The notes below the pieces were generated by a model. It was not told where the DNA came from and searched no databases. It worked only from the letters and a program-made list of their open reading frames with translations. DNA of 64,000 nt from Spirochaetia bacterium. GTDB lineage: Bacteria; Spirochaetota; Spirochaetia; WTKD01; G963693115. The first letter of the stretch is position 1. Every line of letters begins with the position of its first letter. The stretch is taken from contig CBDDCA010000006.1 of the NCBI GenBank assembly GCA_965226055.1, positions 800,001-864,000 on the forward strand. Direction: 5' to 3'. Both the position numbers and the translations under genes were made by a program. Below, piece by piece: positions 37,768-62,486 of this stretch.

Positions 37768-37826
37768 TTTTTATTTTTTTTCTTACTTTTTTTGCTCCTT
37801 TGTCGCATTTAATCCTTGAACTCGTG
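37768..37826 (-). mobile_element. Solo left end of the IS30-family element
   Basis: 37801-37826 is the exact reverse complement of the TIR at 42563-42588; adjacent T-rich sequence also resembles the element's internal left flank. Confidence 0.85.
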
Positions 37827-37844
37827 GGATCCCACAGATGCCAC

Positions 37845-37873
37845 TTGTGTAATTTAAGAGAGCAGTATATACT
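37845..37873 (+). promoter_or_regulatory. Sigma70-type promoter of the tRNA pair
   Basis: TTGTGT-N17-TATACT, 11 nt before tRNA-Ser. Confidence 0.6.
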
Positions 37874-37884
37874 AAAAGTATATA

Positions 37885-37973
37885 GGAGAAGTGCGAGAGT
37901 GGTTGAATCGGGCTTCCTGCTAAGAAGTTGTACCCTTACCGGGGTACCGTGGGTTCGAATCCCACCTTCTCCG
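37885..37973 (+). tRNA. tRNA-Ser(GCT)
   Basis: GGAGAAG/CTTCTCC acceptor stem, CTTC-CTGCTAA-GAAG anticodon arm, long variable arm, GGTTCGAATCC; CCA not encoded. Confidence 0.95.
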
Positions 37974-37975
37974 TT

Positions 37976-38049
37976 GTACCCATAGCTTAGCTGGATAGAG
38001 CGTCAGATTGCGGATCTGAAGGTCGGAGGTTCAAGTCCTCTTGGGTACG
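37976..38049 (+). tRNA. tRNA-Arg(GCG)
   Basis: GTACCCA/TGGGTAC acceptor stem, TCAGA-TTGCGGA-TCTGA anticodon arm, GGTTCAAGTCC; CCA not encoded. Confidence 0.95.
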
Positions 38050-38126
38050 CTATCTTGTGCTGTTTTTTATACGCTTGATTGCACGAATGAGGGGAAATTT
38101 TTGTTACGCAGAATATACGAGAGAAA

Positions 38127-38813
38127 ATGAATGTTGCTATTATCCCTGCTCGAAAAGGATCGAAATCCTTAAAAGATAAAAATATTCTTCTGTTAGGAGG
38201 AAAACCTCTCATAGTGCATACCATACATGCAGCACTAGAAAGTGCGTTATTTGAAAAAGTTATTGTTTCAACTGATTCACAGGAGTATGCAAACATTGCC
38301 ATAGAACATGGTGCTATCGTTCCTTATTTGCGTTCTGTAGAGCTATCTCAAGATACTGTCCCTACATCAAAGGTGAGTGCTGAAATATTGCAATATCTTT
38401 TTCATAATGATGAACATTATACATATTTTTCTGTGCTACAAGTAAGTTCTCCACTTCGTAATGCAAAAGATATTATTGATTCGTATAATTTGCTAGTAAA
38501 TAAAAAAGCTGATACTGTTATAAGTGTATGTGAATCTTCGTATCCTAAACCCTGGGTACAGGAGCTTCCTAGTGATTATAGTATGAGAGGTTTTATTCCA
38601 CAAGAGTATTATAACATGCCAAGACAATCACTTCCACGTTATTATAAGATACATGGTGCTATTTTCTGGTGCAGAGTAGATACATATCATGAGCAGTATA
38701 ATCCTTTTGACCAAAATAGCTATGCGTATGTTATGCCTCAAAGTCGCTCAGTTGATATAGATAGTGACATAGATTTTGAGCTAGCAAAAGTGTTATATGA
38801 ACAACAACGATAA
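38127..38813 (+). CDS. Acylneuraminate (nonulosonate) cytidylyltransferase, NeuA/PseF/LegF family
   Basis: AIIPARKGSK...KN, VSTDS, SPLR, SVDID..DF. Confidence 0.9.
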   Translation: MNVAIIPARKGSKSLKDKNILLLGGKPLIVHTIHAALESALFEKVIVSTDSQEYANIAIEHGAIVPYLRSVELSQDTVPTSKVSAEILQYLFHNDEHYTYFSVLQVSSPLRNAKDIIDSYNLLVNKKADTVISVCESSYPKPWVQELPSDYSMRGFIPQEYYNMPRQSLPRYYKIHGAIFWCRVDTYHEQYNPFDQNSYAYVMPQSRSVDIDSDIDFELAKVLYEQQR

Positions 38814-38855
38814 TTATATATTACAGTAAGAGTAAAATATACTATACTAGTTACT

Positions 38856-39230
38856 ATGAGTGATGATAATCTTAATACAGTACCAAAAGCAGTAGGCCCT
38901 TATAGAAGTGCTATTCTTTGTGGTAATATATTATTTTGTTCAGGACAGATTCCCTTAGATCCTCAAACAGGTGATATAGTTGGAAATAATACAGCAGAAC
39001 AGTGCGAGCAGGTGATAAAAAATATTATTGCTTTACTACGAAGTTATAATTTGACATTACAAGATGTACGAAAGACAGTGTGTTTTCTGAAAGATATGAA
39101 TGATTTCGCTGTATTTAATGAGGTGTATGCACGGTATTTTACTGACCCTTATCCTGCGAGGAGCTGTGTTGAGGTAGCGCGGTTACCAAAAGATGTACTG
39201 GTAGAAATAGAAATTATTGCTGAAAAATAA
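38856..39230 (+). CDS. ridA: RidA/YjgF enamine deaminase
   Basis: AVGPY, SGQIP, FNEVY, PARSCVEV, VEIE. Confidence 0.92.
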   Translation: MSDDNLNTVPKAVGPYRSAILCGNILFCSGQIPLDPQTGDIVGNNTAEQCEQVIKNIIALLRSYNLTLQDVRKTVCFLKDMNDFAVFNEVYARYFTDPYPARSCVEVARLPKDVLVEIEIIAEK

Positions 39231-39262
39231 ATACTATAGCAATAGAATACACTATTCTCACT

Positions 39263-40429
39263 ATGAAGAATAATGCTACCGTGTCTAAACTCGCTCCTAT
39301 TGTTATGGAGCTGGCAGGTGGGGTAGGAAATCAGCTATTTCAGTATAATTTCGGTGTTTTATTATCTCAGTTAAGCGGACGTAGTCTTGTCCTTGATGTT
39401 ACAAGTGTCTACCGTGATGTGCAACGATGTCCAGATATTATGCACTTAATTCCTCCTTTCGTTGATACGACAGGGAGGAGTGTACAGTATATTACAAAGC
39501 GTAAACAGTTATTTGCACTATTACAGTCAAGGGTACTTTGTTCATTAAATAGGTTTGAACGAATTATCAATAAGATATATCCCTATCGTGAAGCGAAAGA
39601 TTGTGGTACATATCAATTTTTTGATGAAAAGAGTTCCTCGTATCAGGATAGTATGTATTTTCATGATAGTAATATACAGCCTTGTTTAACGGAAAAACAG
39701 CTGTTATTATTGAACGATATTGTACACAAAGATACTGCCATACCATTGTTTGTAAGAGGATATTGGCAAGATATGCGGTTATATCGTGCAGTAAAAGAGA
39801 GGGATGTTTTTTGTGTGTTGAATACTCAGCAAAATGAGATGGTAGTACATGCAGAAAAAGAGTTGCAACAAAAGTATGCAGTAGATTTTTCTCATGCAAC
39901 GATAATACATGTAAGACGAACTGATTTTTTATTGACGCAATATCCTCAGTGTTCCCTTGATTACTATAGAAAAGCAGTACAAGTTGTATTAGCAAAGGAT
40001 CCTAAGGCTACATTTCTTGTTTTTACTGATGATGCAAAGTGGTGTGCTACTCATTTTGATATAGGGGTTTCCTTTGTTTTGGTTACAGGCAAAACTGATA
40101 TACATCAAAAGTATATTTCTCTACTGGAAGGAGTAACAGTATATACGAATAGTTTTTCAGCAGTAGATGAAATGATATTGATGAATAGCGGTACTCATTA
40201 TATCCATAGTAATAGTAGTTTTGCTTGGTGGGGAGCGAGATTAACACCCAAGAGACTCTCTGTGAAGGCAACTACACATAAAGGACAGAAAAAGAGTATT
40301 ATTGTTGCTCCTTTTCCATGGTTTGAAAAAAGTGCTATATCTGCCGCATTGTACGATACTCAATGGGATATTCTCAATAATAGGAAAGGAGACTCAGTTT
40401 CATTACAGCAGTATACACAAACTGAATAA
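39263..40429 (+). CDS. GT11 alpha-1,2-fucosyltransferase-like protein
   Basis: GGVGNQLFQY, GYWQ, HVRRTDF, VFTDD, NSSFAWWGA. Confidence 0.88.
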   Translation: MKNNATVSKLAPIVMELAGGVGNQLFQYNFGVLLSQLSGRSLVLDVTSVYRDVQRCPDIMHLIPPFVDTTGRSVQYITKRKQLFALLQSRVLCSLNRFERIINKIYPYREAKDCGTYQFFDEKSSSYQDSMYFHDSNIQPCLTEKQLLLLNDIVHKDTAIPLFVRGYWQDMRLYRAVKERDVFCVLNTQQNEMVVHAEKELQQKYAVDFSHATIIHVRRTDFLLTQYPQCSLDYYRKAVQVVLAKDPKATFLVFTDDAKWCATHFDIGVSFVLVTGKTDIHQKYISLLEGVTVYTNSFSAVDEMILMNSGTHYIHSNSSFAWWGARLTPKRLSVKATTHKGQKKSIIVAPFPWFEKSAISAALYDTQWDILNNRKGDSVSLQQYTQTE

Positions 40430-40438
40430 GCATTGTAT

Positions 40439-41728
40439 CTATAGCCATTTTTTTATTGATTGTGATAGTATGCTAAATGCTTTTTGTATTGTGTGAGGAC
40501 TACATAGGAAGGACGGAGCTAGCCTAAGTCCATGTGTACCAGTACGTAAAATAAGGAGTCCTTTTTCTTGACATTCCGAAATTATTGAGGTGATAGTGGT
40601 ATTTATTGCGTTCTTGTTTGTATCGGCTTCTGAAAAATGTATACCGCGTAAATGTCCTTTTCCTAAGGGATGTATATGTGTATATGTATTACAGAGTATT
40701 GTAATGTTTTTTTCTAAGGATTGTGCTGATATATGTCGTTTGTTTTGTATGTGTTTTTGTTGTAGTAATGACAATACTGTCAGTCCACAGGAGGCAGTCA
40801 AGGGGTTTCCTCCTAATGTAGTGCCATGATCTCCTGCTTGTAGTATATGTTGAATCTTTTGAGAATAAATGACTGCGCCTCCTGCAGTTCCTCCTCCTAA
40901 TGCTTTTGCAAGAGTAATGATGTCTGGTTGTAATGGTAAAAGCGATGATGCGAAAAAGTTTCCGCAACGGTACAGTCCAGTTTGTACTTCATCAGCAATA
41001 ATAAAGAATGAATATTTTTTTGCTAATGCTTGTAAGCATGTTGCTGTTTCTTGTGTGAGAGCTTCTAAGCCTCCTTCTCCTTGTATTGGTTCAAATATCA
41101 CTGCTGCAGTTTGGTCTGTGACTGCTTGCTGTAAACTTGTACAGTCATTATAGGGGACAATGGAGCAGTGTGGGAGGAGTGGCTCAAAGGGGCTGCGGTA
41201 TTTTTCTTGTCCTGTTACTGATAATGCTCCCATAGTTCTTCCGTGAAAGGAGTTCTTAAATGCTACGAAATGCGTTTTGTGTTTCATATTGTTGCGATAA
41301 AAGTACAGTCGTGTAAACTTTAGTGCAGCTTCGTTTGCTTCGGTACCACTGTTACATAAAAAGCTTGCTGCAAAATGTGTGGTATCATGATGGGAGTTTT
41401 CTGCTGTAGCTTCTCCATGAGAAACGGTGTGAGTACGATGAAACTCATTATTTGCGGTATCAACAAGTTGTTTGCATAGCTCAATACTTGCAGGGTATGT
41501 GTACAGATTAGATTGATGAAGTACCTTTTTTGCTTGTTTCGTGATATTTCTAATAACTGCAGGATGGCTATGTCCTAATGCATGTACTGCAATGCCTCCA
41601 GTAAAGTCAATGTATTTGTTTCCATGTATGTCCCAAACATAATCTCCTTTTGCTTTTTTTATTATGAGCTGAGGATTATAGCTATGAGTGAGTTGTGGAT
41701 ATGTAGTAAGTATAGTGTTATGAGTCAT
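40439..41728 (-). CDS. argD: Acetylornithine aminotransferase
   Basis: DFTGGIAV.ALGH, NSGTEANEAA, FHGRT, EPIQGEGG, DEVQTG, AKALGGG, HGTT. Confidence 0.9.
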   Translation of the reverse strand: MTHNTILTTYPQLTHSYNPQLIIKKAKGDYVWDIHGNKYIDFTGGIAVHALGHSHPAVIRNITKQAKKVLHQSNLYTYPASIELCKQLVDTANNEFHRTHTVSHGEATAENSHHDTTHFAASFLCNSGTEANEAALKFTRLYFYRNNMKHKTHFVAFKNSFHGRTMGALSVTGQEKYRSPFEPLLPHCSIVPYNDCTSLQQAVTDQTAAVIFEPIQGEGGLEALTQETATCLQALAKKYSFFIIADEVQTGLYRCGNFFASSLLPLQPDIITLAKALGGGTAGGAVIYSQKIQHILQAGDHGTTLGGNPLTASCGLTVLSLLQQKHIQNKRHISAQSLEKNITILCNTYTHIHPLGKGHLRGIHFSEADTNKNAINTTITSIISECQEKGLLILRTGTHGLRLAPSFLCSPHTIQKAFSILSQSIKKWL

Positions 41729-42506: not shown

Positions 42507-42562
42507 TCTATTACAACTATAAAATATATTTGTAAATAAAGATAGTGCAATACGAGTTCAAG

Positions 42563-43383
42563 CACGAGTTCAAGGATTAAATGCGACAAAGGAGCAAAAA
42601 AAGAGCAAGCAAAAATAAAAAAAAGGAATGCACTCTATAATTGTATAAACGAAACAAATTAGGAGACATCCTTTATGGGTATACCATAAAACTCATTTTA
42701 TCATCTGACAGACAAATATCGTACTATTATCGCTACGCTCCGTCATGCAAAGTACAGTATCAATGCTATAGCAATACGCCTCATTTGACACAGTATCTGA
42801 GAAAACAACACACAACACGCAAAAAAAGAACCATATCTCGTTCTTTCTCCGCTTCTCGTATCCCTCATCGTGTCTCAGTACACGAAAGAGGCGATGTTTC
42901 ACACGAATATGGCCATTGGGAGTGGATTTTGTTGGCTCTTCTTCAAAAGCTACTGTGCTTGCTTTAGTGGAAACACATACTCGTTATGTTCTCTTTCATA
43001 AGATACCTGACAAAACACTGCTCATACCGTACAGTATGGCATGCTCTTTGCTCTGAGGAATATACCACGCCATTTATGTAACAGTTTCACTTATGATAAT
43101 GGCAATGAATTTATGCTCTATACCGAAATAAATACACGCCTGAATGCTCGTTCTTATTTTTGTCTCCTTACTGTGCTGTATATTGTATTATAAGAAAAAG
43201 GATGAGTTGAACACTCTATTGGATTATTATGTCACTACTTTCCTAAGAAGATGTTGTTTCACAGAGTCAAGCAAAGTGATATACTACAAGTATAAATGCT
43301 TATCGATCATAGACCACGAAAATGTCTTCATTTTTTGAACCCTGCTGAAGCCTTTGCTGTTGCATTTAGTCCTTGAACTCGTG
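42563..43383 (+). mobile_element. Decayed IS30-family insertion sequence with 26-bp terminal inverted repeats
   Basis: TIRs CACGAGTTCAAGGATTAAATGCGACA (42563-42588) and TGTTGCATTTAGTCCTTGAACTCGTG (43358-43383) match 24/26 as inverted repeats; enclose transposase fragments. Confidence 0.88.
42675..43376 (+). pseudogene. IS30-family transposase pseudogene (frameshifted, internally deleted)
   Basis: Fragments in shifting frames: FYHLTDKYRTII...YSINAIA, YGHWE, LVETHTRY, SFTYDNGNEF, RPRKCLHFLNPAEAFAVAFSP*. Confidence 0.85.
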
Positions 43384-43401
43384 GTGATTGCAGAAACAGT
43401 A

Positions 43402-43430
43402 TTGTAATATTATGTAATATAGTTTATTAT
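43402..43430 (+). promoter_or_regulatory. Candidate sigma70 promoter of the giant surface protein gene
   Basis: TTGTAA-N17-TATTAT; AAGGAG RBS at 43463-43468 before ATG 43475. Confidence 0.45.
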
Positions 43431-43474
43431 ATACAATATTGAATATTTTTGAAAAAAAAAGTAAGGAGATACAT

Positions 43475-46400
43475 ATGAGAAAAAATAATTTGTTTATACA
43501 TAGCAATCTGTATATATGGGGGGGGGGGGGGTAATGCTACTATTGATACTAGTACTACTACTATTGGGCTGTGAAGCTCCAGGAGGGGGCTCTGGTGGAG
43601 GATCTTCTCCTGCTCCAGGAGGGGGAGGAGGAAAGGTACAACCTAGCTCAAAAGAACAATTATTACAGCTTATCTCTGAGCGGTTAAGTAAAGACAAGGC
43701 AGCAGACTTAAACGATATAGATGTAAGTAAGGTTTCTGATATGAGTAATTTGTTTGTGCAGTTTCCTACCTTTAGTGGCAATGTGTCGGAGTGGGATGTA
43801 AGCCATGTAACAAATATGAGTGGTATGTTTGAAGGAGTGACAGGGTTTCGTGGAGGGATATCAAGGTGGGATGTAAGCAAAGTAACAAACATGAATACTA
43901 TGTTTAAGGGAGCGACCAAATTTAATGGGGATATATCAGGCTGGGATGTAAGTAATGTAAAACAGATTAACAGCATGTTTGAAGGAACAGCTGCTTTCAC
44001 TCAGGATCTGAAGCAATGGGCAGTAGCACCTGCGGTAAGTAAAGTGAGTAAAGATGTATTTAAGAATTCGGGGGTTACTGAGGATCCCAGATGGTTGACA
44101 TTAGAGGTGCTGTTAGAGCCAAAGGTAGTAGTAGCAATAGTAGGACGGGCAGTGAATGTGTCTATCACTCGGTGGCCAGTAACAACAACAGGAACATTTG
44201 CATTACTCCCAGTGTTAGTAGGGAGAGATGTACTTCCAACAGGGATGAATTTTGATGGCACGACAGGGACAATAACAGCAAATGCAGGAGACCTTAAGAC
44301 GATAACAAAGGGAAGTCCTCACAGGTTTACTGTTACTTTTAATGGGACAGGAGAATTTGATAAAGCAGTAAATAAAAATGTGCAAGCAGCTGTATCGGTA
44401 TCAGTGAAGGATTATTCGACACAACCTAAGACAAAAGCAGAGCTGATAGCACTCATAAAAGTGATAGTAGATGCGGATGGGAATGGGATTATTGATAATG
44501 CTACAGCAGATCTCAATAGCATTGATGTCAGTGCTATTACGGATATGAGTGGTATATTTAATGATAGTATGTTGAAACATTTTACTGGAGATATATCGGG
44601 CTGGGATGTCAGTAATGTGAAATATATGAATGAGATGTTTCGAGGATCAAAGTTTACTGGAAATATATCAGGCTGGGATGTAAGTAATGTGAGAGAAATG
44701 AATAGTATGTTTCGTGACTCACAATTTACTGGGGACATATCAAGTTGGGTTGTCAGTAATGTAAGAGAAATGAATAATATGTTTCGTGGATCGCGATTTA
44801 ATGGAAATATATCAAATTGGGATGTAAAGAAAGTTACCACTATGGATGGTATGTTTGAAGGAGCAACTGCCTTTAATCAGGATATATCAGGCTGGGCAGT
44901 TGATGCGGTAACTACTATGGAGAATATGTTTAATTCAACAAAAGCATTTGATCAAGATTTGGAAGCATGGGGAGAGCATATAGCAGGAAGGACAGTAGAT
45001 AAAACAGATATATTTGATAGCTCTAGTGTGTCTGATGAAAAGATACCTACATGGGCATATGTGTTTGATGTAGTATATCAAGAAGCAAGAATAAACGATA
45101 TTACTGTGTTGCAATATCAAAACATAGTAGTGAGGATTAAAAAGCAATTTCCATCACATGCGACAGGACAATATAGTATAGCACCCAATACACTTAGTGC
45201 AGATACAGGATTATCATTTGATGCACAAAAGGGAATAATAAAAGGAATAGCAACGCAAGAAGTAGCAAAAAAAGCATATACAATTACTTTTACTGGAGAC
45301 GCTAAGTTTCAAGGCAAGAGTCTTGTTATTCCATTTTCATTAGAGGTAAAGTCAAATCAAGGGAAATATGCGTATTTTCCTAATAACAAAACAGAATTGA
45401 TAGCAGCAATAAAAAAGGTAATGGATATAAACGGTGATGGGACGCCAGATGATAACAGTGCTGATTTGAATGTCATCTATACGGGGAATATCACGGATAT
45501 GAGTAGGATATTTAATGAGAGTGCCTTGAGAAATTTTAATGGGGATATATCGGGCTGGGATGTAAGTAATGTTACTACTATGGGATCTATGTTTTATAAA
45601 TCGAAATTTAATGAGGATATATCAAAATGGGATGTAAGTAATGTTACTTATATGGGATCTATGTTTCGTGGTTCGTCATTTAATGGGGATATATCGGGCT
45701 GGGATGTAAGTAATGTTACTAATATGGCAATAATGTTTGCCTATGCACCATTTAATGGGGATATATCAAAATGGGATGTAAGTAATGTTACTACTATGTA
45801 CTTTATGTTTGCCTATGCGCAATTTAATGGGGATATATCGGGCTGGGATGTAAGTAATGTTACTAATATGGAAGCAATGTTTATTGAAACGCCATTTACT
45901 GGAGACATATCAAGATGGGATGTAAGTAGTGTTGGTAATATGAAACATATGTTTTGGGATTCGTCATTTAATGGGGATATATCGGGCTGGGATGTAAGTA
46001 ATGTTACTACTATGCGGACAATGTTTTATCAATCAAAAGTCTTTAATCAGAATATATCAGGGTGGAATGTTGAGAAAGTCACTACTATGTATAAAATGTT
46101 TAATGGTGCAACATCGTTTGATCAAGATTTAGAAGCATGGGGAGAGCATATACCAGAGATAACAGAATCAGGAAAACCACTGGATATAACAGGTATATTT
46201 TCTCATTTGCCTGATGAAAAAATTCCATCATGGGTATATACTCTTGTGTACAAAGATACAGGCGTTACAGTAAATAAGAAAGTGTTCACTACGAGTGATA
46301 AAAATATTGTTTTGTCTATTGACAAAACACCAAAAGCAGCAACAGGAACTTATAGTGTAGTACCCACTACATTTACTACAGATACAGGATTGACATTTGA

Positions 46401-49400
46401 TACAGCAACTGGAGAGATAAGTGGTTCTCCTACGGTAGCATTGGCTACAAAAGAGTATACCATAACATTTACAGGAAATGGAGGGTATGTTGGCAGGAAA
46501 AAAAGTACCCCTCTCACTCTCACGATACAGGATGTGAGTGCTTATACTTATACCCCTAAAACAAATGCAGCTTTGATAGCAGATATAAAAACGGTGATGG
46601 CAGCAGATGCTGATGGAGATGGTAACCCTGATGGGAATACAGCAGACTTGAATGTCATATATACAGGGTATATAACAGATATGAGTGGGATATTTAATGA
46701 GAGTGCCTTGAGAAATTTTAATGGGGATATATCGGGCTGGGATGTAAGTAATGTAACTACGATGGACAGTATGTTTGAAGAATCGAAGTTTACAGGAGAA
46801 AATGGAGACATAACAAGTTGGGATGTAGGGAACATAACAGATATGAATGATATGTTTAAGAAGTCGTCATATGCAGGGGATATAAGTACATGGGATGTAA
46901 GGAATGTCACAACTATGAACGAGATGTTTCGAGAAACAGCGTATAACAATGATATAACTCTATGGGATGTTCGAAATGTTGCAGATATGGAATTAATGTT
47001 TTATAAGAACACAGCATTTGATAAGGACATATCCTATTGGAATGTAAGCAAGGTAGCTACTATGAAACAGATGTTCAGTGAAACAGGAGCATTTAATCAA
47101 GATATATCAAGCTGGGCAGTTGATGTTGTGACTACTATGGAGTCAATGTTTCAAGGGGCAACAGCCTTTGATAAGGATTTAGAAGCATGGGGAGAACATA
47201 TAGCAGAAAGAACAGTAAATACTGATAAAATATTCAATACCGCAGATAATAGTGGAGTGATACTCTCTGATAAAAACATACCTACATGGCTCTACGATTT
47301 TGTGCTTACAGTTGGAGGAACCGAAAGCAGTACTATAAGTGGGTTTGTAGGCAAAGCCATAGAAGCAGATGGTGCAATAACAGTAAGTAAGAAATTGCCT
47401 ACTACGGCAGTGGGGAGTTATACTATCTCTCCGAGCATAACAGATATAGGGCTTAGCTTAGATGCAAGTACAGGAGCGATAAGTGGGAGTCCAACAAAAG
47501 TACAAAGTACAAAAAGCTATACACTGCTCTTTAGTGGAACAGGAGACTATGCAAGCAAAAGCTATGAGATACCATTTATCATGACAGTAGCAGCAGGAAA
47601 GTATAGTTACTCTCCTACCAATAAAGAAGAGTTAATAGCAGCGATAAAGGATGTGATGGATACCAATGATGATGGGAGTCCTAATGATAACAGTGCCGAT
47701 TTGAATGTCATCTATACGGGGAATATCACGGATATGTATAAGTTATTTAGTAGTTATGGTGATTTGGAAAATTTTAATGGAGATATATCGCAATGGGATG
47801 TAAGTAATGTTACCACCATGCGATCTATGTTTTATCAATCGAAATTTAATGGAGATATATCAGGCTGGGATGTAAGTAATGTTACCACTATGCGAACAAT
47901 GTTTTATCAATCGAAATTTAATGGGGATATATCAGCTTGGGATGTAAGTAATGTTACTTTTATGCACTATATGTTTTCCTATGCACCATTTAATGAAGAT
48001 ATATCGAAATGGGATGTAAGTAATGTTACTGATATGGAAGCAATGTTTACTGAAACGCCATTTACTGGAGACATATCAGAATGGGATGTAAGTAGTGTTG
48101 GTAATATGAAATATATGTTTTGGGGATCATCATTTAATGGAGATATATCAAAGTGGAAGGTAAGTAATGTTACAAACATGTACGCCATGTTTTATCAATC
48201 GAAATTTAATGGAGATATAGCAGGGTGGGCAGTTGATAGTGTAACTACCATAAAAGACATGTTTCGCAAAGCAGCAGCGTTTGATCAAGATTTAGAAGCA
48301 TGGGGAGAACATATAGAAGGAAGAACAGTGGATAAGGGAAATATATTTACCGGTGCTAATGTTTCTGATGAAAATATACCGAGCTGGATATATAGCATAT
48401 CACAGAGATATGGAGGCAATGTTGCTTCATTATTTACTATGGTAAAAGGGCAACAGAACATTAGTATTCCATTGACTAATACTGGAGTGAGTACATTTAA
48501 TGCGACAGGGGACTATAGTATACTGCCAAGTACCTTTACTGCAGACACAGGCTTGACATTTAGTGCAGTGAATGGAACAATAAGCGGAAGTCCTACAAAA
48601 GCACTTGCGCTGAGAAAATATATAATTGTGTTTACAGGGACTGGTGATTATGCAGGAAAAAGGCGTACAAAAGAGTTTACCATACACATATATGACGGCA
48701 GTGGTACATATACATACTACCCAAAAACAAAGAGTGCTTTGATAGCAAATATAAAAACGGTGATGGCAGCAGATGCTGATGGGGATGGTAACCCTGATGG
48801 GAACACAGCAGACTTGAATGGAATATATACAGGATACATAAGAGATATGCGTGAGGTATTTTATGACAGTACTTTGAAAAGTTTTAATGGGGATATATCG
48901 GGCTGGGATGTAAGTAATGTGAGAAATATGCGAAATATGTTTAAGGAGAGTCGATTTACTGGAGATATATCAGGCTGGGATGTAAGCAATGTGAGATATA
49001 TGCAAGGTATGTTTTATAAATCGCAGTTTACTGGAGATATATCGGGCTGGGATGTAAGTGATGTAGAACAGATGTACTGGATGTTCCGTGAATCGCAATT
49101 TAATGGGGATATATCAGGCTGGGATGTAAGTAGTGTTGGTAATATGGAACATATGTTTTATAAATCGAAATTTAATGGGGATATATCAAACTGGAAGGTA
49201 AGTAATGTTACTGATATGGAAGCAATGTTTTATGATTCGCCATTTACTAAAGATATATCGGGTTGGGATGTCGGTAATGTTACTACTATGTACTTTATGT
49301 TTGCTTATGCGCAATTTAATGGGGATATATCAAGGTGGAATGTAAAGAAAGTTACCAATACGGATTATATGTTTAACGGAGCAACAGAGTTTAATCAAGA

Positions 49401-50898
49401 TATATCGGGCTGGGCAGTTGATGCAGTAACTACTATGGAATATATGTTTAACGGAGCAACAGAGTTTAATCAAGATTTAGAAGCATGGGGAGAGCATGTA
49501 GCAGGAAGGAAAATAAACATACCAGGTATATTTGATAGGACTAAGATACCTAATGATAAAATACCAAGCTGGACATATCAATATCGACCTACGAATAAAG
49601 CAGAATTGATAAAAGCAATAAGGCAGATGATATCTACTAATAATAGAGCAGATTTGAATGTCATATACACAGGAAATATTAGAGATATGAGTAAGGTATT
49701 TAATGATCGTTTTCTGAGAAAATTTAATGGGAATATAGCAAGATGGGATGTGAGTAATGTTACCGATATGAATCGTATGTTTTGGGGTACGTCATTTAAT
49801 GGAGATATATCGGGCTGGAAGGTAGATAAAGTAGAAGATATGGAAAGTATGTTTAGTACATCATCATTTAACGGAGATATATCGGGGTGGAAGGTAGATA
49901 AAGTGAAAAATATGAGAGGTATGTTTTATAAATCGAAATTTAATGGGGATATATCAAATTGGAATGTGAGTAATGTTACCGATATGGGAGGTATGTTTCA
50001 TGCATCATCATTTAACGGAGATATATCGAGGTGGGATGTGAGTAATGTTACCGATATGAGTAGTATGTTTCATACATCATCATTTAGGGGAGATATATCG
50101 GGGTGGGATGTGAGTAATGTTACCGATATGAGTAATATGTTTATTAATACATCATTTAAGGGGAATATATCAAAATGGAAGGTAGATAATGTGAAATTTA
50201 TGTACAATATGTTTCGTAATTCAAGATTTAATGGAGATATATCAGACTGGAAGGTAGGGAATGTGACAAGTATGAAAGGTATGTTTCATGAATCGAGTTT
50301 TAATAAGGATATATCAAACTGGGATGTCAGTAATGTTACCACTATGCGATCTATGTTTTATATATCGAAATTTAATGGGGATATATCAAGGTGGGATGTG
50401 AGTAATGTTACCGATATGGCATATATGTTTCAACAATCAAAATTTACTGGAGATATAAAAGACTGGAAGGTAGGGAAAGTGACAGATATGAGCTATATGT
50501 TTGCAAGCACAGATGGTTTTAATAGTCGTATAGGAGGCTGGGATGTCAGTAATGTTACGAATATGGAACATATGTTTTCATCCTATGGGTTACGCTATGC
50601 TCGCCCATTTAGTGCGAATATATCAGGCTGGAATGTAAGTAAGGTTAAAAATATGAAAAATATGTTTTGGGACAATCATGCGTTTAATAGGGATATATCA
50701 GGCTGGGATGTCAGCAGTCTTACTAATATGTTTCATATGTTTAATGGTGCAACAGCATTTGATAGAGATATCTATGAATGGAAAGAACATTTTGGATCAA
50801 AAAAGGTTAATGCGATAAATGCATTTGCTGGTACTGCTATAAGACATAAGACACCAGATTGGGCAGGAGGAACCTATACAGGACCATCTTCTAAATAG
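43475..50898 (+). CDS. Giant DUF285/BspA-type repeat surface lipoprotein with Ig-like spacers; natural start out of frame at a poly-G tract (long ORF 43516-50898)
   Basis: LLLLGC lipobox; seven blocks of ~24-25-aa FNGDISGWDVSNVTxMxxMF repeats separated by five TGLxFD..TG.ISG.PT (He_PIG-like) domains; RBS-preceded ATG at 43475. Confidence 0.85.
43518..43531 (+). repeat. G14 homopolymer within the signal-peptide coding region
   Basis: 14 consecutive G read directly. Confidence 0.9.
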
Positions 50899-50923
50899 AA
50901 CATAAGTATACTCTTGGATATGG

Positions 50924-50957: not shown

Positions 50958-50992
50958 TATTATTTTTGTCTTCTGCTCTGAAGTTGAATTTT

Positions 50993-51019
50993 TGTTGACA
51001 TTTAGTCCTTGAATTTGTA
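50993..51019 (+). mobile_element. Degenerate solo IS30 end
   Basis: TGTTG(A)CATTTAGTCCTTGAATTTGTA aligns to the right TIR at 43358-43383 with one insertion. Confidence 0.7.
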
Positions 51020-51046
51020 GTGTATCAATGATATACTAACATTAAT

Positions 51047-52090
51047 ATGAAATATAAACAAATTGGCACATCAAATTTGCAAGTAAGTGAAATATGCCTC
51101 GGTACCATGACATGGGGATATCAGAATACCGAAAAAGAGGCATTTGAGCAATTAGATTATGCTGTAGCAAACGGTGTAAATTTTATAGATACTGCCGAAT
51201 TATATGCAGTACCTCCAAGCAGAGAAACATATGGAGCAACAGAACAATATATTGGAAATTATTTTAAGAAACACCCTACAAAAAGAAAGGATATTATTGT
51301 TGCAACAAAAATAGCGGGGCCGGGCATAAAGTATATTAGAAATGGTGAAGGCTTTACCCCTAATGGTATTGTGAAAGCATTAGAGGATAGTCTCTCACGT
51401 TTGCAGATGGATTATGTTGATATATATCAACTTCATTGGTCACAAAGGATGACTCCGCGTTTTGGAATACGCGATTATAATGAGACATGGCTTAAGAAGG
51501 ATGATGCATTAGAAGAGACACTTGGGGTACTGGGCAAACTTGTTACAGAAGGAAAAATTCGTGAAATAGGATTGTCTAATGAACACAGTTGGGGAGTTAT
51601 GCATTGTCTTCGATTACACGAAAGAGATTCTCAAATACCGCGTATACAAAGTGTACAGAATGTATATAATCTTATTACGCGCAGTATTGATAGTAATTTA
51701 TCCGAAGTATTTATGCGTGAAAATGTTAGCTTATTGCCATACTCTCCGCTTGCTGGAGGATTGTTAAGTGGTAAATATGAGGGAGGAAAACGTCCTGAAG
51801 GAGCTCGTTTCACTACTTGGGGCAACCAGTCTATGCCACGATATATAAATACACAAGCAGCAAGTGCTATTACTCGTTATATTGAGCTTGCAAAAAAACA
51901 TGCTATTAGTCCTACAACAATGGCACTGAGCTTTGTAAATAAAAGAAAGTATGTGGCAAGTAATATTATTGGGGCAACAGATATGCAGCAGTTACAGGAA
52001 AATATTGCTTCGGCTGATGTACAGCTTAGTAGTACACTGCTACAGGAAATAGAAAAGATTCATGGAGAGATTCCTAACCCTTCTTTGTAG
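51047..52090 (+). CDS. Aldo/keto reductase (Tas-like)
   Basis: ICLGTMTWG, NFIDTAELY, ATKIAG, YQLHW, GLSNE, YSPLAGG, IIGAT. Confidence 0.92.
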   Translation: MKYKQIGTSNLQVSEICLGTMTWGYQNTEKEAFEQLDYAVANGVNFIDTAELYAVPPSRETYGATEQYIGNYFKKHPTKRKDIIVATKIAGPGIKYIRNGEGFTPNGIVKALEDSLSRLQMDYVDIYQLHWSQRMTPRFGIRDYNETWLKKDDALEETLGVLGKLVTEGKIREIGLSNEHSWGVMHCLRLHERDSQIPRIQSVQNVYNLITRSIDSNLSEVFMRENVSLLPYSPLAGGLLSGKYEGGKRPEGARFTTWGNQSMPRYINTQAASAITRYIELAKKHAISPTTMALSFVNKRKYVASNIIGATDMQQLQENIASADVQLSSTLLQEIEKIHGEIPNPSL

Positions 52091-52095
52091 AGTAT

Positions 52096-52743: not shown

Positions 52744-52856
52744 AGTATGCAGGAGTATGGTACGCTATTCTTTGTTTTGATGTATGTGCTGTGGTATTAT
52801 GTAGGGGGGTATATACAGGTATTATATAGGGGAAATAGAAAGAAGGTATAGAGTAT

Positions 52857-53162: not shown

Positions 53163-53165
53163 GAT

Positions 53166-53633: not shown

Positions 53634-53711
53634 TAGTACTGGTACTATAAAAAGTTGTTATGAATTAGCTTGTCTCTTTTTTGTGAGACATAAAATTTAT
53701 TGTAAGAAGAT

Positions 53712-56997: not shown

Positions 56998-57039
56998 TCG
57001 TGTAGCATACAAAGATTTGCTTTTTCTTACTTTCTTGTT

Positions 57040-57065
57040 TGTTGCATGTAATGCTTGAACTCTTG
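57040..57065 (-). mobile_element. Degenerate solo IS30 left end
   Basis: TGTTGCATGTAATGCTTGAACTCTTG matches the 37801-37826 copy at 22/26; preceded by TTTTTCTTACTTT as in that copy. Confidence 0.7.
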
Positions 57066-57160
57066 CAGTGTACTTGCATAATATATATTAATAGCATATA
57101 TTGTATAATAGTGGTATGTCTTAAAAAGTATCATATCCAACATTAAATAAGGAGGAACTT

Positions 57161-57517
57161 ATGTTTACACAATTACCAACAGGTGGTGGATCTGGAGATA
57201 GCTGGAAAGAAGCAGGTGGAATACTACTTATTACTGGTGCAGTTGCTCTTGGTATCATCATTAAGGGTGCTGCCGACAATGTAAATACTGAAGAGACGGC
57301 AGATGCGAAAGAATACGCTGCAAAAAAAGACGCAGATGCGAAAGAATACGCTGCAAAAAAAGACGCAGATGCGAAAGAATACGCTACAAAGAAAGACGCA
57401 GAAGCGGAAGCAGAAGCTATTAAGATAAAAGCAGAAGCGGAAGCCAATGCTATTAAGACAAAAGCAAGAGCAGAAGCAGAAGCTATTAAGCTGAAAAAGC
57501 AAGCGGAAGCTAGCTAA
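57161..57517 (+). CDS. Small membrane-anchored coiled-coil protein with 11-aa tandem repeats
   Basis: AAGGAGG RBS, one TM segment, (ADAKEYAAKKD)x3 then AEAEAEAIKIK-like repeats, downstream terminator. Confidence 0.8.
   Translation: MFTQLPTGGGSGDSWKEAGGILLITGAVALGIIIKGAADNVNTEETADAKEYAAKKDADAKEYAAKKDADAKEYATKKDAEAEAEAIKIKAEAEANAIKTKARAEAEAIKLKKQAEAS
57299..57397 (+). repeat. 33-bp tandem repeat x3 (coding)
   Basis: GCAGATGCGAAAGAATACGCTGCAAAAAAAGAC twice exactly, third copy with 2 substitutions. Confidence 0.92.
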
Positions 57518-57562
57518 GTTACAAAGATTATCCCAATTAGTCTCATACATCTTTTAATAGCG

Positions 57563-57592
57563 AAAGAGAGCAGTAGTAATTGCTCTCTTTTT
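57563..57592 (+). terminator. Rho-independent terminator
   Basis: AAAGAGAGCA...TGCTCTCTTT stem ending in a T run. Confidence 0.75.
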
Positions 57593-57619
57593 CATTATTA
57601 TAATATCACTTGAGTTCAC

Positions 57620-57663
57620 ACCCTACCGAAGCCTTTGCTGTCGCATTTAGTCCTTGAACCGCA
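57620..57663 (+). mobile_element. Solo right end of the IS30-family element
   Basis: ACCCTACCGAAGCCTTTGCTGTCGCATTTAGTCCTTGAAC closely matches 43339-43378 (transposase tail plus TIR). Confidence 0.85.
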
Positions 57664-57718
57664 TCCTATACAACAAACAGTGAAAAAATAAATATAAATA
57701 TACTATACTGTAAAACAT

Positions 57719-59764
57719 ATGAACACAAAGCAAGATACTCCTCAATCAGTTGATTTGCGTCATCATGCTATGATGCAGTATAGTCCTATGACCGTAGTGT
57801 CTCAGTTTGAGCCTGCTGGAGATCAGCCAAAAGCCATTGATGAGCTTAGTAAAGGAATAGAAAATGGCAAAAAATTTCAAATACTAAAAGGGGTTACTGG
57901 TTCGGGAAAAACATTTACTATGGCAAAAACCATAGAAAAGTTACAGAAACCAACTCTTATTATTTCTCATAACAAGACACTTGCTGCTCAGTTATATCGT
58001 GAATTTAAGGAATTTTTTCCTAACAATGCAGTGGAATATTTTGTATCATACTATGATTACTATCAACCTGAAGCCTATGTGCCAGGAAGAGATCTCTATA
58101 TTGAGAAAGATGCCTTAATCAATGATGAAATTGATCGTTTGCGTTTATCAGCAACAACGAGTTTATATTCACGAAATGATGTAATTATTGTAGCAACAGT
58201 CTCTTGTATTTTTGGTTTAGGAAATCCCACTGATTATCAGAATATGACAGTAGTGGTACAAGTAAAAGAGGAGCTTGATATTATAAAGCTAAGAGAGAAA
58301 CTCATTTCTTTACAGTATAGTCGAAATGATGCTGTGCTAGAACGAGGAAATTTTCGTATACAAGATGAAGTAATTGATATTTATCCTGCATATGAAGAAT
58401 GTATATACAGAATAGTGCTTGATTGGGATACAGTAACAGCAATCTATAAACTACATACAGTCACACAAGAAGTGATAAAACAACAGGATAAGTTATGGGT
58501 ATTTCCTGCAAAGCATTTTGTTACTACAAGCGAAAAAATAAAAGGAGTATCAAAAAAAATTAAACAAGAGCTAGATATACAATATAAAAAATTATTGGAT
58601 ACAGGAGACATAGTAGCAGCTGAGCGTCTTAAATCTCGTACTGAATATGACATAGAGATGTTGCTAGGATTAGGATCTTGTACTGGTATTGAAAATTATT
58701 CTCGTTATTTATCAGGGCGAGAAGAAGGAGAACGTCCATCGGTATTACTTGATTATTTTCCTTCTAATTATTTATTGTTTATTGATGAATCTCATGTTAC
58801 CATTCCACAGGTTGGGGCGATGTATGAGGGGGATAGAGCACGCAAAGAAAATCTTGTAAAATATGGGTTTCGGTTACCCTCTGCAAAAGATAATCGTCCT
58901 CTTACCTTTAAGGAGTTTGAAAGTATCATTCCACAATGTACTTTTGTTTCTGCTACTCCTGGCAAATATGAACTGCAAACTACCCAAGATGTAATAGAAC
59001 AAGTGGTGCGTCCTACGGGACTTCTTGACCCTAAAATAACCGTGCTTCCTACGAAAGGACAAATAGATGATTTAATTTTTAGAATTAAAGATTGTATTAA
59101 AAAAAATGAGCGAGTACTTGTTACCACATTGACAAAAAAAATGTCAGAGCAGCTGAGTGATTATCTTAATGATGTAGGCTTTAAGGTGGAATACTTGCAT
59201 TCTGAAATTGAAACAGTAGAACGTGTTGAAATTCTTACGCGTTTACGACAAGGAACAACTGAGGTAGTGGTAGGTATTAACCTATTGCGTGAAGGAATAG
59301 ATTTGCCAGAAGTATCATTAGTAGCCATATTTGATGCAGATAAGATAGGATTTTTACGATCAACGCGTTCACTCATACAGACGATAGGGAGAGCAGCACG
59401 TCATATACATGGGCAAGTAGTCATGTATGCTGATAAGGAAAGTGATGCAATGAAAGAAGCTATTGAAGAAACTGAAAGAAGGCGAGCATTACAGCATGCC
59501 TTTAATGAAAAGCATGGACTACAACCGAAAAGCATACAGAAAGCAGTGAAAGATATTTTGGTACGCAGTACGCTTATAAAACAAGATGCTACAGAGGAAA
59601 CAGTGCGTGTATTAAAAGAGTCGCATAATCTTCTTGTAGAAAAAGATCGTAAAAAGCTCATTAAAGCGTTAGAAAAGCAAATGCGTGAACATGCAGAACG
59701 CCTTGAATTTGAAGAAGCACGCATACTTCGAGATGAAATACAAGAAATAAAAAAGATGAAATAG
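57719..59764 (+). CDS. uvrB: Excinuclease ABC subunit B
   Basis: GDQP, GVTGSGKT, HNKTLAAQL, YYDYYQPEAY, DESH, GFRLPSA.DNRPL, QTIGRAAR. Confidence 0.98.
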   Translation: MNTKQDTPQSVDLRHHAMMQYSPMTVVSQFEPAGDQPKAIDELSKGIENGKKFQILKGVTGSGKTFTMAKTIEKLQKPTLIISHNKTLAAQLYREFKEFFPNNAVEYFVSYYDYYQPEAYVPGRDLYIEKDALINDEIDRLRLSATTSLYSRNDVIIVATVSCIFGLGNPTDYQNMTVVVQVKEELDIIKLREKLISLQYSRNDAVLERGNFRIQDEVIDIYPAYEECIYRIVLDWDTVTAIYKLHTVTQEVIKQQDKLWVFPAKHFVTTSEKIKGVSKKIKQELDIQYKKLLDTGDIVAAERLKSRTEYDIEMLLGLGSCTGIENYSRYLSGREEGERPSVLLDYFPSNYLLFIDESHVTIPQVGAMYEGDRARKENLVKYGFRLPSAKDNRPLTFKEFESIIPQCTFVSATPGKYELQTTQDVIEQVVRPTGLLDPKITVLPTKGQIDDLIFRIKDCIKKNERVLVTTLTKKMSEQLSDYLNDVGFKVEYLHSEIETVERVEILTRLRQGTTEVVVGINLLREGIDLPEVSLVAIFDADKIGFLRSTRSLIQTIGRAARHIHGQVVMYADKESDAMKEAIEETERRRALQHAFNEKHGLQPKSIQKAVKDILVRSTLIKQDATEETVRVLKESHNLLVEKDRKKLIKALEKQMREHAERLEFEEARILRDEIQEIKKMK

Positions 59765-59917
59765 TGACAGTATCACTTAGTATGCTTATTCTCTCTTCAT
59801 AACATATAACATTTTTTGTTAAAAGTACTTACTATACTGTTGCCAATATACTTTTTCGTTAGATTCTTTTTTTTGTTTTTTAACAATACAGCCTGATATA
59901 TAATATTCTTACTTCAT

Positions 59918-62179
59918 TTATATGTCAGTATTAAACAAGTCAAAATTATTGACAGTATTTTTCGCTTTCATATATAATTTATATTTTTTTCTTGCATTAC
60001 TACATATTTTTTCTTGTTTTTCTTTATCCATTTTAGGTATTCCCATATCCAATAAATCATAAAAATTTAATGATTGTCTTACAGAACCAAAACATCGTGT
60101 TATTATCTCTTCTTTCCCTTTTTTACTTTTGAGATATAAATAAACAAATTCAGGAAGAAAATCATTATTAAAAACTTCAAATGTTACATATGCAGAAGAA
60201 ACAGCTACTTTTTGATTAGTAGTATTGATGCCAATAGAACCAACATTTATTCTTGAAGGATTATAGCCTATATCATTTTTTCTGATAACTTTATATTTCT
60301 CGTTTGTTTTTGAGGTAACAGATATAAAATTTTCCCCCCAATAGTCCTCTCCTAATGTGATTCCATAAAATTCACTATTTGTAATAGAAGCTGTAGGATG
60401 TTCTTCTTCATTTTTAATATTCGTTTCTCTAATTATCTCTCTGAATTTAATGTGTCCTGTTGGAATTGATTTATCGTACCTAAAATATAGTAAGCTATAA
60501 TTTTCATCTTTTTTTATTTTATCATAAGGAATGTATTGAAGATTTTCATAAGAAATAGACTTAAATTCATCTAAATCATTTATTCCATCTTTTTTTCTTC
60601 TCCTTGTTGTTAATGTATATCCATCATTTTTTACTTTATAATAAAATACTTTATCAATAGGAGTATTGTTAAATCCCTGTAATACTAATATAGATGTTTT
60701 TGCATCAGCATAAGGCAAAAATACTCCAACAGGTAAAGAAATAATACCTTTTAATAAATTATTATCAATGATTTTTTTTCTTGTATTTTTGGAAGCACTG
60801 TTATTTAACAAACCTTCAGGAATAATTATAAATGCCCTTGCTGTTGGTTTATTATTCAAAGATTTCATGATATGTTCTATACATTGACTATTTCCATCAG
60901 TTGTATCATGTGTATAATATAATTCATTTTTATCAACTTCTAAATTAAAAGGTATATTTGAAATAACTACATCGTATAACCCTTCTACTGCATTTAATAG
61001 AGTATTTTGTTGAATAATATTACTATGTCCGTCTCCTGTTAAAATCATATTCATTTTAGATACCTTTGCTGTTGTTGATATTTCGGAACCAAAAAATGTA
61101 CTTTCTTTTAAGTCTTTTTTCACAGTTTCTGTAAAAATATTCTTATCTTGCAACTGTTTTTTTAATATATTGAAAGCTGATATTAATATTCCTCCTGTTC
61201 CACAAAAAGGATCATATACTTTTTCTCCATATGTAATATTTGCTAGCTCAACTAGAAAATTTACAATATGTCTGGGAGTAAAATACTCACCTAAATCTTT
61301 ATTGTTTGAATTATATTTTTGGATAAAATACTCAAAAGCATCTCCTTTTATATCTGTCTCTATACCAGATAAATTTAATTGATCTAATTTATTGATAATT
61401 TGTTTTAATGATTTTTTATCTCTTATCATAAGTTTTGTAAATAAACTATCTTCTTTTTGTCGATTAAAAATGTTTTCTAATTCTGTAATTACTATGTTAT
61501 TTATATAAGAATAGAGCTCATCTCCTGTTTTATTTTTATAACTATCCCATTTGATATGTTGAGGTATATTCTCTGTTATTACATCATTTTCTTCACTAAT
61601 CAGCTTAAGAAATAATAAATTAGTAAATTCTGTAAATCTTTCGATTCCTTTTTGTATTCCTGCTTTTCGTAATTTGTTATTAGCAAAAGCAAAAACGCTA
61701 ATTAAATCTTGTTTAGATTTAATTTCCAATTTTGTTTCTTTGATAAGATTGGGTGTATTCTCTCTTATATATTCTTTATATTGTTCTATTTCTAATATTT
61801 CTTTTACTTCGATTCCATCAATTTTTAATTCTTCTTTTTTCTTAACAAAAAAAGATTTTAAAGTAATACCATCAAATATTATTACTATCTCAGATTTTAG
61901 TTTTTTTGCATACCCTAATGCTTGCTCTAGAGTATCAATGAGATTCATGTTAGGCTTTTTGGTTTCTATTATTATATTAGGTTTTGTTTCATTTTCATAA
62001 AGATATATCATATAATCAGGTCTTTTCCCTTCTAATATAATAAATTCTTCCTCTGTTTTTGGGGATTGCATATAAACATTTCTATTAGGGTTACCAAAAT
62101 CATAGATATAATGTTTTTCTTTAAGATATTGTTCTAATAAATTTTCTATTTCCCTTTCTTGAACATTATTTTTTTGCAT
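59918..62179 (-). CDS. Fused restriction endonuclease / N6-adenine methyltransferase / target-recognition protein (Type IIG-like)
   Basis: N-terminal RPDY...IIETK (PD-ExK), GEYFTPRHI, DPFCGTGG (motif I), SNIPF (motif IV), C-terminal HsdS-like TRD (YNPSRINVG, VSSAY, GSVRQSL). Confidence 0.85.
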   Translation of the reverse strand: MQKNNVQEREIENLLEQYLKEKHYIYDFGNPNRNVYMQSPKTEEEFIILEGKRPDYMIYLYENETKPNIIIETKKPNMNLIDTLEQALGYAKKLKSEIVIIFDGITLKSFFVKKKEELKIDGIEVKEILEIEQYKEYIRENTPNLIKETKLEIKSKQDLISVFAFANNKLRKAGIQKGIERFTEFTNLLFLKLISEENDVITENIPQHIKWDSYKNKTGDELYSYINNIVITELENIFNRQKEDSLFTKLMIRDKKSLKQIINKLDQLNLSGIETDIKGDAFEYFIQKYNSNNKDLGEYFTPRHIVNFLVELANITYGEKVYDPFCGTGGILISAFNILKKQLQDKNIFTETVKKDLKESTFFGSEISTTAKVSKMNMILTGDGHSNIIQQNTLLNAVEGLYDVVISNIPFNLEVDKNELYYTHDTTDGNSQCIEHIMKSLNNKPTARAFIIIPEGLLNNSASKNTRKKIIDNNLLKGIISLPVGVFLPYADAKTSILVLQGFNNTPIDKVFYYKVKNDGYTLTTRRRKKDGINDLDEFKSISYENLQYIPYDKIKKDENYSLLYFRYDKSIPTGHIKFREIIRETNIKNEEEHPTASITNSEFYGITLGEDYWGENFISVTSKTNEKYKVIRKNDIGYNPSRINVGSIGINTTNQKVAVSSAYVTFEVFNNDFLPEFVYLYLKSKKGKEEIITRCFGSVRQSLNFYDLLDMGIPKMDKEKQEKICSNARKKYKLYMKAKNTVNNFDLFNTDI

Positions 62180-62413
62180 TTTTGTCTCTCTTATGTTCTT
62201 TTTTATACTTGTTTGTTTGATTCGGTAGATTATTAAATTCTATTAGTATAGGTTTAATTATATTTTCTTTCATATAATATATTATACCTTTTTTGTATCT
62301 TAAAAACTCTCACTATCTTTATTCCATGTCGTACGCTTCTGTTATCATCGTTGTTTTGTGCATCTGTGAGTAATTACTTTATCATAGAATAGAGCATGCC
62401 TTTTATTCTTCTT

Positions 62414-62439
62414 TGTCGCACTTGCTCCTTGATCTTGCA
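62414..62439 (-). mobile_element. Degenerate solo IS30 end
   Basis: TGTCGCACTTGCTCCTTGATCTTGCA matches the 37801-37826 copy at 19/26 ungapped. Confidence 0.55.
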
Positions 62440-62457
62440 AAACACCTTAATGCATAC

Positions 62458-62486
62458 TTGTGAATTACTTATATGTATAGTACAAT
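62458..62486 (+). promoter_or_regulatory. Sigma70-type promoter of the mevalonate genes
   Basis: TTGTGA-N17-TACAAT, 9 nt before the GTG start. Confidence 0.55.

Follow-up and report, generated by a model that had tools for sequence, protein, structure and literature searches.

Why do copies of one short repeat stand at the same distance in front of the promoters of different genes? This question is raised by a 64,000-nucleotide (nt) stretch of DNA from a bacterium of the class Spirochaetia (hereafter the window), which corresponds to positions 800001-864000 of contig C6 in a 2.25-Mb assembly of six contigs with 35% guanine plus cytosine (GCA_965226055.1; labels beginning with C denote contigs). 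The window carries seven copies of a 26-bp repeat. The original prediction had read these copies as ends of an IS30-family transposable element and had offered two explanations for their position: transposition targeted to promoters followed by loss of all but the promoter-proximal end, or retention of the ends as protein-binding sites. Taken as a whole, the results presented below are best explained by site choice with a ruler on sigma70-type promoters, with RNA polymerase as the putative landmark and with a presumed later decay of most copies to stubs, and this explanation is very probably correct.

The 26-bp repeat forms the terminal inverted repeats of an insertion sequence (IS) of 1081 bp, of which the genome holds nine intact full-length copies with 97.8-100% mutual identity (BLAST), none of them in the window. 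The single open reading frame (ORF) of this IS encodes a protein of 321 amino acids (aa), and its stop codon lies inside the right end of the element. The protein matches the IS30 transposase profile NF033563 at 238.6 bits (cut-off 80) over profile positions 1-267 of 267; its N-terminal HTH_38 domain scores 53.5 bits, above the cut-off, and its rve core scores 30.5 bits, slightly under the cut-off of 32.6. The best family matches are to IS30 and then to IS481 and IS21, and profile searches of the 321-aa transposase gave no match to the Mutator-like transposase family. The left inverted repeat (IRL) begins with CACGAG and the right inverted repeat (IRR) with TGCGGA, and 21 of the 26 positions agree between them. 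Direct repeats of 3 bp surround seven of the nine intact copies and thereby fix the tips of the element to the base. Members of the IS30 family are about 1-1.25 kb long, have one ORF and terminal inverted repeats of 20-30 bp, and transpose by copy-out-paste-in via a circle or dimer in which the ends abut; the size, the single ORF, the inverted repeats and the 2-3-bp target duplication of this family are all found in the 1081-bp IS. Judged by its sequence, the element is an IS30-family IS with a helix-turn-helix (HTH) and predicted DDE transposase and a 3-bp target duplication, as had been supposed from its ends, and the intact transposase that was still to be sought is supplied by the nine full-length copies.

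Genome-wide, the spacing between tip and promoter is fixed far beyond chance. A search of the whole genome with a 20-nt core of the end, at no more than 4 mismatches, found 105 ends, compared to 2 for the reversed core used as a control; after removal of 3 near-duplicate flanks, the flanks of 102 non-redundant ends were aligned on the tip. A TTG starts at position +19 from the tip in 28/102 flanks, compared to 5 at +18, 3 at +20 and about 2 at other positions (binomial P ~2e-23). The motif TANNNT starts at +42 in 39/102 flanks (binomial P ~2e-24) and at +41 in 13/102; the background count is about 5. Both motifs together (TTG at 18-20 and TANNNT at 41-43) occur at 30/102 ends but at only 0.89% of 20,000 random intergenic positions, and the -10 motif alone at +41 to +43 occurs at 57/102 ends, compared to 13.4% of the random positions. 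Among the 33 combinations of the form TTG-N16-18-TANNNT in the flanks, 23 have exactly the arrangement +19/N17/+42. The enrichment of TTG at +19 and of TANNNT at +42, which the original prediction proposed to look for around all ends, is thus strong for both motifs. The 57 flanks with a -10 motif fall into 52 unrelated clusters that lead into different genes; therefore, the signal is not part of a longer repeat. In the flank logo, only the -35 and -10 motifs stand out, and positions +1 to +18 carry at most 0.1 bit and show no symmetry. The tips are oriented toward the 5' end of the next ORF in 73/102 cases, compared to 56% for random positions, at a median distance of 83 nt; random orientation had been named beforehand as an argument against targeting. 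Ten tips lie inside called ORFs, several of them being chance matches.

The intact copies indicate when this spacing arises. In eight of the nine, one end has TANNNT at +42/43, which is the left end in seven copies and the right end in the other. In the genome of a sister species of the same genus (G001; hereafter the sister genome), the two flanks of the copy at C6:87935-89015 adjoin each other, at 98% identity, and the corresponding site has no IS and no stub, while the promoter is already there; this is the one clean case of the empty sites that had been suggested as a check. At two further copies, the promoter-side flank is conserved at 97-98% in the sister genome up to 3-5 nt from the tip, and the other side is not syntenic. 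Since the spacing is found in eight of nine near-identical intact copies and at one empty site, it is set at insertion and not by erosion. No empty allele was found at the intact copy C6:520972 among the contigs of four sequencing runs, none of which joins across the IS; contigs of three of the four runs bridge from the flank into the IS, and the summed contig depth at both IS ends is many times the flank depth, which fits the presence of many stubs and does not reflect copy number. As a separate observation, the intact copies on C2 and C3 sit at the borders of variable multigene regions; the distal flanks of these two copies (L083:1850-2081, C2; L084:1774-2081, C3) belong to multi-copy families with about 40 matches in the sister genome at 72-88% identity.

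The same spacing is seen outside the first genome. In the sister genome, where the only close transposase relatives in public genomes were found, 66 ends were counted (control 0); 16 of them have TTG at +19 and 34 have TANNNT at +41/+42. The two genomes share some orthologous sites, and the two sets of ends are consequently not fully independent. Scans of genome and metagenome contigs for the transposase gave nothing above 41% identity outside the sister genome. A decayed relative of the element, with a different tip and 61% aa identity over an 83-residue fragment, is present in a genome of another genus of the same family (G003); three of its seven ends are canonical, and five of seven have TTG at +19/20. 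The other six genomes of the order that were searched contain no such ends. A metagenome-assembled genome of Bdellovibrionales provided the control, 15 copies of an unrelated IS30-family element: TTG stands at +19 in 0/30 of their ends, and there is no -10 peak. The right end of that element has an outward TTGCAC about 18 nt before its tip, and among its 15 right-end flanks, 4 have a TAnnnT that begins at +2 and 3 have one that begins at +5, a pattern suggestive of hybrid promoters or of a preference for AT-rich targets. In general, the intact copies, the empty site, the flank logo and the two other genomes all fit the first of the original explanations, in which transposition targets promoters and only the promoter-proximal end is kept later.

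In the window itself, all seven 26-bp ends (at 37801, 42563, 43358, 50993, 57040, 57639 and 62414) are present as predicted. With the full 26-mer at no more than 3 mismatches, 37801(+), 42563(-) and 43358(+) were recovered (expected 0), and with a 17-nt core six of the seven (expected 0.46); the seventh, at 62414, is a degenerate member. The features, in window coordinates, are as follows.

37768-37826 (+): solo IRL stub of 59 nt, tip at 37826 facing right; IS positions 1-59 at 96.6% identity (BLAST), with the exact 26-mer
37845-37873 (+): predicted promoter TTGTGT-N17-TATACT; boxes at 37845 and 37868, which are +19 and +42 from the tip
42516-42521 (-): -10 box TATAGT at +42 from tip 42563, upstream of argB (42506-41718)
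42563-43383 (+): internally deleted, frameshifted IS copy of 821 bp; IS positions 1-217 and 490-1075 at 90-91% identity (BLAST)
43402-43430 (+): predicted promoter TTGTAA-N17-TATTAT; boxes at 43402 and 43425, which are +19 and +42 from tip 43383
50993-51019 (+): degenerate right-end stub, recognised by its sequence
57040-57065 (+): degenerate stub with a -10 at +39; synteny with the sister genome stops within the end
57639-57663 (+): right-end stub of about 44 nt with a 1-nt deletion, true tip at 57663; an orthologous stub is present in the sister genome
62414-62439 (+): old degenerate stub with 4/20 core mismatches; the sister orthologue has 5 further differences
62458-62486 (+): predicted promoter TTGTGA-N17-TACAAT; boxes at 62458 and 62481, which are +19 and +42 from the tip

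For the tips at 37826, 43383 and 62439, the sequence agrees with the earlier claim of promoters at exactly +19/+42. The first of these promoters leads into tRNA-Ser (37885-37973) and then tRNA-Arg, and it is kept in the sister genome, where it stands behind a different end. The ends at 42563 and 43358 are the two ends of the 821-bp copy and form an inverted repeat, with the left end (42563-42588) having its tip facing left and the right end (43358-43383) having its tip facing right. The -10 offsets claimed for argB and uvrB likewise hold. The argB gene is identified by TIGR00761 at 178.5 bits, and its TATAGT is at +42; an 11-nt partial tip (cttgaactcgt) directly adjoins the complete end at 42563. 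Upstream of uvrB (57719), the 1-nt deletion in the end places TATACT (57704-57709) at +41 from the true tip 57663. The stub at 50993, which is also present in the sister genome, lacks a box at +42; its own TTGAAT (51009-51014) is followed after N17 by TATACT (51032-51037) at +13, and the two may form a hybrid promoter of the aldo-keto reductase gene at 51047. Of the gene names given earlier, the tRNAs, argB and uvrB stand, and mvaS stands only in part: the gene after the 62458 promoter (62496) encodes an HMG-CoA synthase-like protein with a score of 293.9 bits, under the family cut-off of 360. The gene behind the 43402 promoter encodes a giant DUF285-repeat protein (ORF 43516-50898). Just inside its start (43516-43535), downstream of an earlier ATG at 43476, lies a run of about 14 G, which is likely to be a slipped-strand phase-variation tract.

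Most of the remaining ends in the genome, about 84, are short solo stubs. Among solo ends, left-type tips number 33 and right-type tips 45, and a -10 at +41 to +43 is present in 21 and 23 of these, respectively. BLAST pieces that consist of an end only number 74 (43 left and 31 right), with a median reach of 49 nt on the left and 44 nt on the right; the stubs range in size from 26 to 80 bp, and only 4 internal fragments of the IS stand alone. Miniature inverted-repeat transposable elements (MITEs) were considered as an identity for the stubs and rejected. An opposed end within 1300 nt at no more than 5/20 mismatches was found for only 3 ends (85-106 bp, MITE-like), a count that excludes the 9 intact and 2 internally deleted copies; two more ends with an opposed end at 6 mismatches were no better than the outward-flank control, and the score distribution of the inner flanks was the same as that of the outer-flank control. 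Two further loci, C6:150158-150288 and C5:498665-498794, share one multiply deleted derivative that has a single end (the right end followed by IS positions 891-928 and 632-671) and was either duplicated or moved.

Comparison with the sister genome bears on the age of the stubs. Thirteen ends have a counterpart there with both flanks matching; one is an intragenic chance match, and two are one tandem pair. Across the 11 orthologous pairs of stubs, the end itself is 88% identical, the subterminal part 83%, the promoter 94%, the downstream sequence 92% and the sequence further inside 90%. Conservation of the end does not exceed that of its neutral-looking flanks; therefore, no selection on the end is visible, which argues against domestication. 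On these alignments, the stubs are old relics common to both species that drift roughly neutrally, and they are not domesticated binding sites; the second of the two original explanations, retention as protein-binding sites, is thus not supported, the end being at 88% beside flanks at 90-92% and a promoter at 94%. At least six stubs have inner and outer flanks that match two different stub loci of the sister genome at ≥90% identity, and of the four stubs in the window's right half, two (50993 and 57040) have a synteny break inside the end. In addition, some promoters are occupied by an intact copy in one of the two species and by a stub in its sister, the distal flanks of three such pairs being not syntenic. 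Read from these synteny comparisons, the ends, or ancestor copies of the ends, are rearrangement breakpoints.

Based on the results presented above, a mechanism of insertion and decay may be proposed. Insertion leaves one tip 18 nt in front of the predicted -35 hexamer and 41 nt in front of the -10; this corresponds to about -54 from the predicted start and to the upstream edge of the RNA polymerase holoenzyme footprint. Either end can face the promoter; in seven of the nine intact copies it is the left end, an arrangement that makes the transposase gene divergent from the target gene, keeps the promoter intact and so turns the site into a safe haven. The landmark would be promoter-bound RNA polymerase and not a DNA word. 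This is favoured because the flanks conserve only the -35 and -10, because 27 of the 57 flanks with a -10 keep its distance without a TTG, and because the -10 lies about 40 bp from the joint, which is too far for direct reading by a 321-aa transposase. A complex prediction for the transposase with the RpoA C-terminal domain and sigma region 4 scored 0.29, against a mark of 0.34, and is evidence neither way. Later IS-length deletions would strip most copies to 26-80 nt of the promoter-proximal end; deletions shifted toward the promoter would kill it and be lethal to the gene, so that only promoter-proximal stubs would survive, and deletions that remove the promoter side are not seen. The surviving stubs would be hit again by new copies and would act as recombination breakpoints. 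In its most specific form, the proposal describes an IS30-family transposase tethered to the holoenzyme at about -54 as a second, independent case of polymerase-guided transposition, with stubs that serve as landing pads and recombination sites and with rearrangements that break at transcription-unit boundaries; this form is plausible, and we hold it tentatively, stopping short of calling it probable.

Known systems provide a background for this mechanism. According to one report (PMC3942029), the TnGBS integrative and conjugative elements (ICEs), ISLre2 and part of ISKra4, which have Mutator-like transposases, insert at a fixed 15-17 bp upstream of the -35 of sigmaA promoters. The element described here is similar in its fixed short distance, since the 18 nt between tip and -35 equal 15 nt plus the 3-nt duplication; in leaving the promoter intact; and in an orientation that is tied to the asymmetry of the ends, near-symmetric ends inserting both ways. 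A fixed distance of 13-17 bp from a predicted sigmaA promoter at a large share of sites, which characterises the TnGBS/ISLre2/ISKra4 elements, is also found here, a likeness in function only, and the comparison drawn in the original prediction is apt. On the other hand, the transposases of TnGBS, ISLre2 and ISKra4 are Mutator-like (p-MULT 3 and 4), whereas the present one is IS30-type, with HTH_38 and a predicted integrase-like core; the p-MULT sequence signature proposed for promoter targeting cannot apply to it. The element also differs in its length of 1.08 kb, its 3-bp duplication and its lack of conjugation genes.

With IS30 of E. coli, the element shares the transposase family, the size, the single ORF, the 26-bp inverted repeats and the 2-3-bp duplication. 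The targets described for IS30 (PMC9333248) are near-palindromic hot spots and its own ends, which are also recombination sites; here, by contrast, there is no conserved or palindromic joint, and what is conserved is a promoter that lies off to one side, at 18-47 nt. ISApl1 (Tn6330, mcr-1) offers a parallel for the decay, being lost, according to a published account (PMC5821093), by approximately IS-length deletions that leave end remnants and are explained by abortive copy-out. This IS30-family decay to end remnants matches the tight 26-80-nt stubs found here. Unlike in ISApl1, the end that is kept here is almost always adjacent to a promoter, which may be attributed to selection against promoter-reaching deletions. 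A full-text literature search, which left many subscription papers and supplements outside its reach, found no report of promoter targeting by an IS30-family element. What is new here is an IS30-family member whose predicted target choice is of the TnGBS/ISLre2 kind.

Three other explanations were weighed against the polymerase-guided ruler. The one that survives best, and is nevertheless unlikely, is that the transposase reads the promoter DNA itself (the -35, the -10 or the shape of the DNA) in a hot-spot-like manner, without RNA polymerase. IS30 does recognise defined hot-spot sequences and its own ends (PMC9333248); the N-terminal HTH of the transposase gives a weak, sub-threshold match to sigma70 region 4 (20.3 bits, cut-off 25.7); and the spacing data would be the same under protein-guided and DNA-guided targeting. 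Direct reading is difficult to reconcile with the 27 of 57 ends that have a -10 and no TTG at +18 to +20, which makes the -35 word dispensable, with the distance of about 41 bp between the -10 and the joint, or with flanks that show no conservation at the joint or over +1 to +18 and no palindrome resembling an IS30 hot spot.

It is highly unlikely that there is no promoter targeting at all and that copies simply land beside old ends, the spacing being inherited from a few ancient events together with duplication of promoter regions. Such landing is known, since IS30 inserts next to its own ends, incomplete copies included (PMC9333248), and the tandem ends at C5:222046/222075, the partial tips that adjoin complete ends and the promoters at which an intact copy in one species faces a stub in its sister would all be accommodated. 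However, the sister genome carries no stub at the empty site of the C6:87935 copy, the 57 positive flanks represent 52 unrelated clusters in front of different genes, and a diverged end shows the same spacing in another genus; an explanation would, moreover, still be needed for the first end at each promoter. Finally, random intergenic insertion, with selection keeping those copies that lie outside the polymerase footprint or activate a promoter and with stubs as domesticated sites, is scarcely credible: the stubs do predate the split of the two species (13 pairs, one of them an intragenic chance match) and one stub may donate a -35 (51009-51014), but selection against promoter damage predicts a step, with nothing below 18 nt and a flat distribution beyond, and the data form a one-nucleotide spike (5/28/3 at +18/+19/+20) without the 10-11-bp phasing expected of activator sites, while the end, at 88%, is no better conserved than neutral flanks, the promoter is at 94% and degenerate stubs such as 62414 keep decaying.

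Several results weigh against the polymerase-guided ruler itself. A -10 at +41 to +43 is lacking at 45/102 ends; these include the distal ends of intact copies (7/9 IRR ends) and intragenic chance matches, and not all of them are explained. The ninth intact copy (C6:206477) lies in repeat-rich coding DNA without a convincing promoter, two of the nine intact copies have no target duplication, and the C6:87935 copy provides the only clean empty site. All promoters here are motif predictions, and the gene calls come from a crude ORF picker. The role of the promoter-bound holoenzyme as guide is one that we infer, and the mechanism of stub formation is borrowed by analogy from the abortive copy-out of ISApl1. 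The model does not account for two features of the tips: identity in the 11 orthologous pairs is only 64% over the 15 nt nearest the tip, and the last 9-14 nt of another end directly follow a complete end in 7/102 cases and in 5/66 cases in the sister genome, compared to 0 in control windows. Furthermore, the tip type differs between the species in two orthologous pairs, and tandem ends are present at C5:222046/222075. The tip turnover, the tip-type switches and the partial tips point to repeated hits at the same promoters, and IS30 insertion next to its own ends with sequence conversion may contribute to these tip structures.

These findings have implications beyond the locus. Promoter-proximal safe-haven targeting, which is known for one bacterial transposase superfamily, has on these results evolved at least twice, and the IS30 family would gain a third way of choosing targets, in addition to hot spots and its own ends. 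This family includes the clinically important ISApl1 and ISAba125. A compact IS30-type enzyme of 321 aa offers a much smaller system for studying how a transposase senses a promoter. The approximately 57 stubs here and 34 in the sister genome mark likely promoters in uncultured spirochaetes. Because the stubs coincide with synteny breakpoints, the element is tied to genome architecture; if transposition is indeed tethered to polymerase, rearrangements would break at a safe upstream boundary and move promoter-gene units intact.

Some minor observations concern neighbouring sequences. A second repeat, ctgttcggcttctgattagaatttcca, which is present at C5:171222, C5:601189, C5:523306 and C2:139288 and in the sister genome, is preceded by an IS-like, T-rich subterminal sequence. 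In the sister genome, it takes the place of the IS end 17 nt upstream of the tRNA promoter that corresponds to window position 37845, and its last 14 nt also occur inside the spacer of the stub at C5:406414. As an alternative end of the element, ctgttcggcttctgattagaatttcca was dropped, since it has only 4 copies in the genome and no consistent spacing. Elsewhere in the window, a small gene made of 33-bp tandem repeats (57161-57517) lies in a segment that is replaced by a different sequence in the sister genome. At C6:742822, the outward flank and its sister orthologue contain a poly-A tract of approximately 25-30 nt between TTGCAT (+19) and the -10 region; the length of this tract differs between the two genomes, and it is possible that it acts as a promoter-spacer switch.

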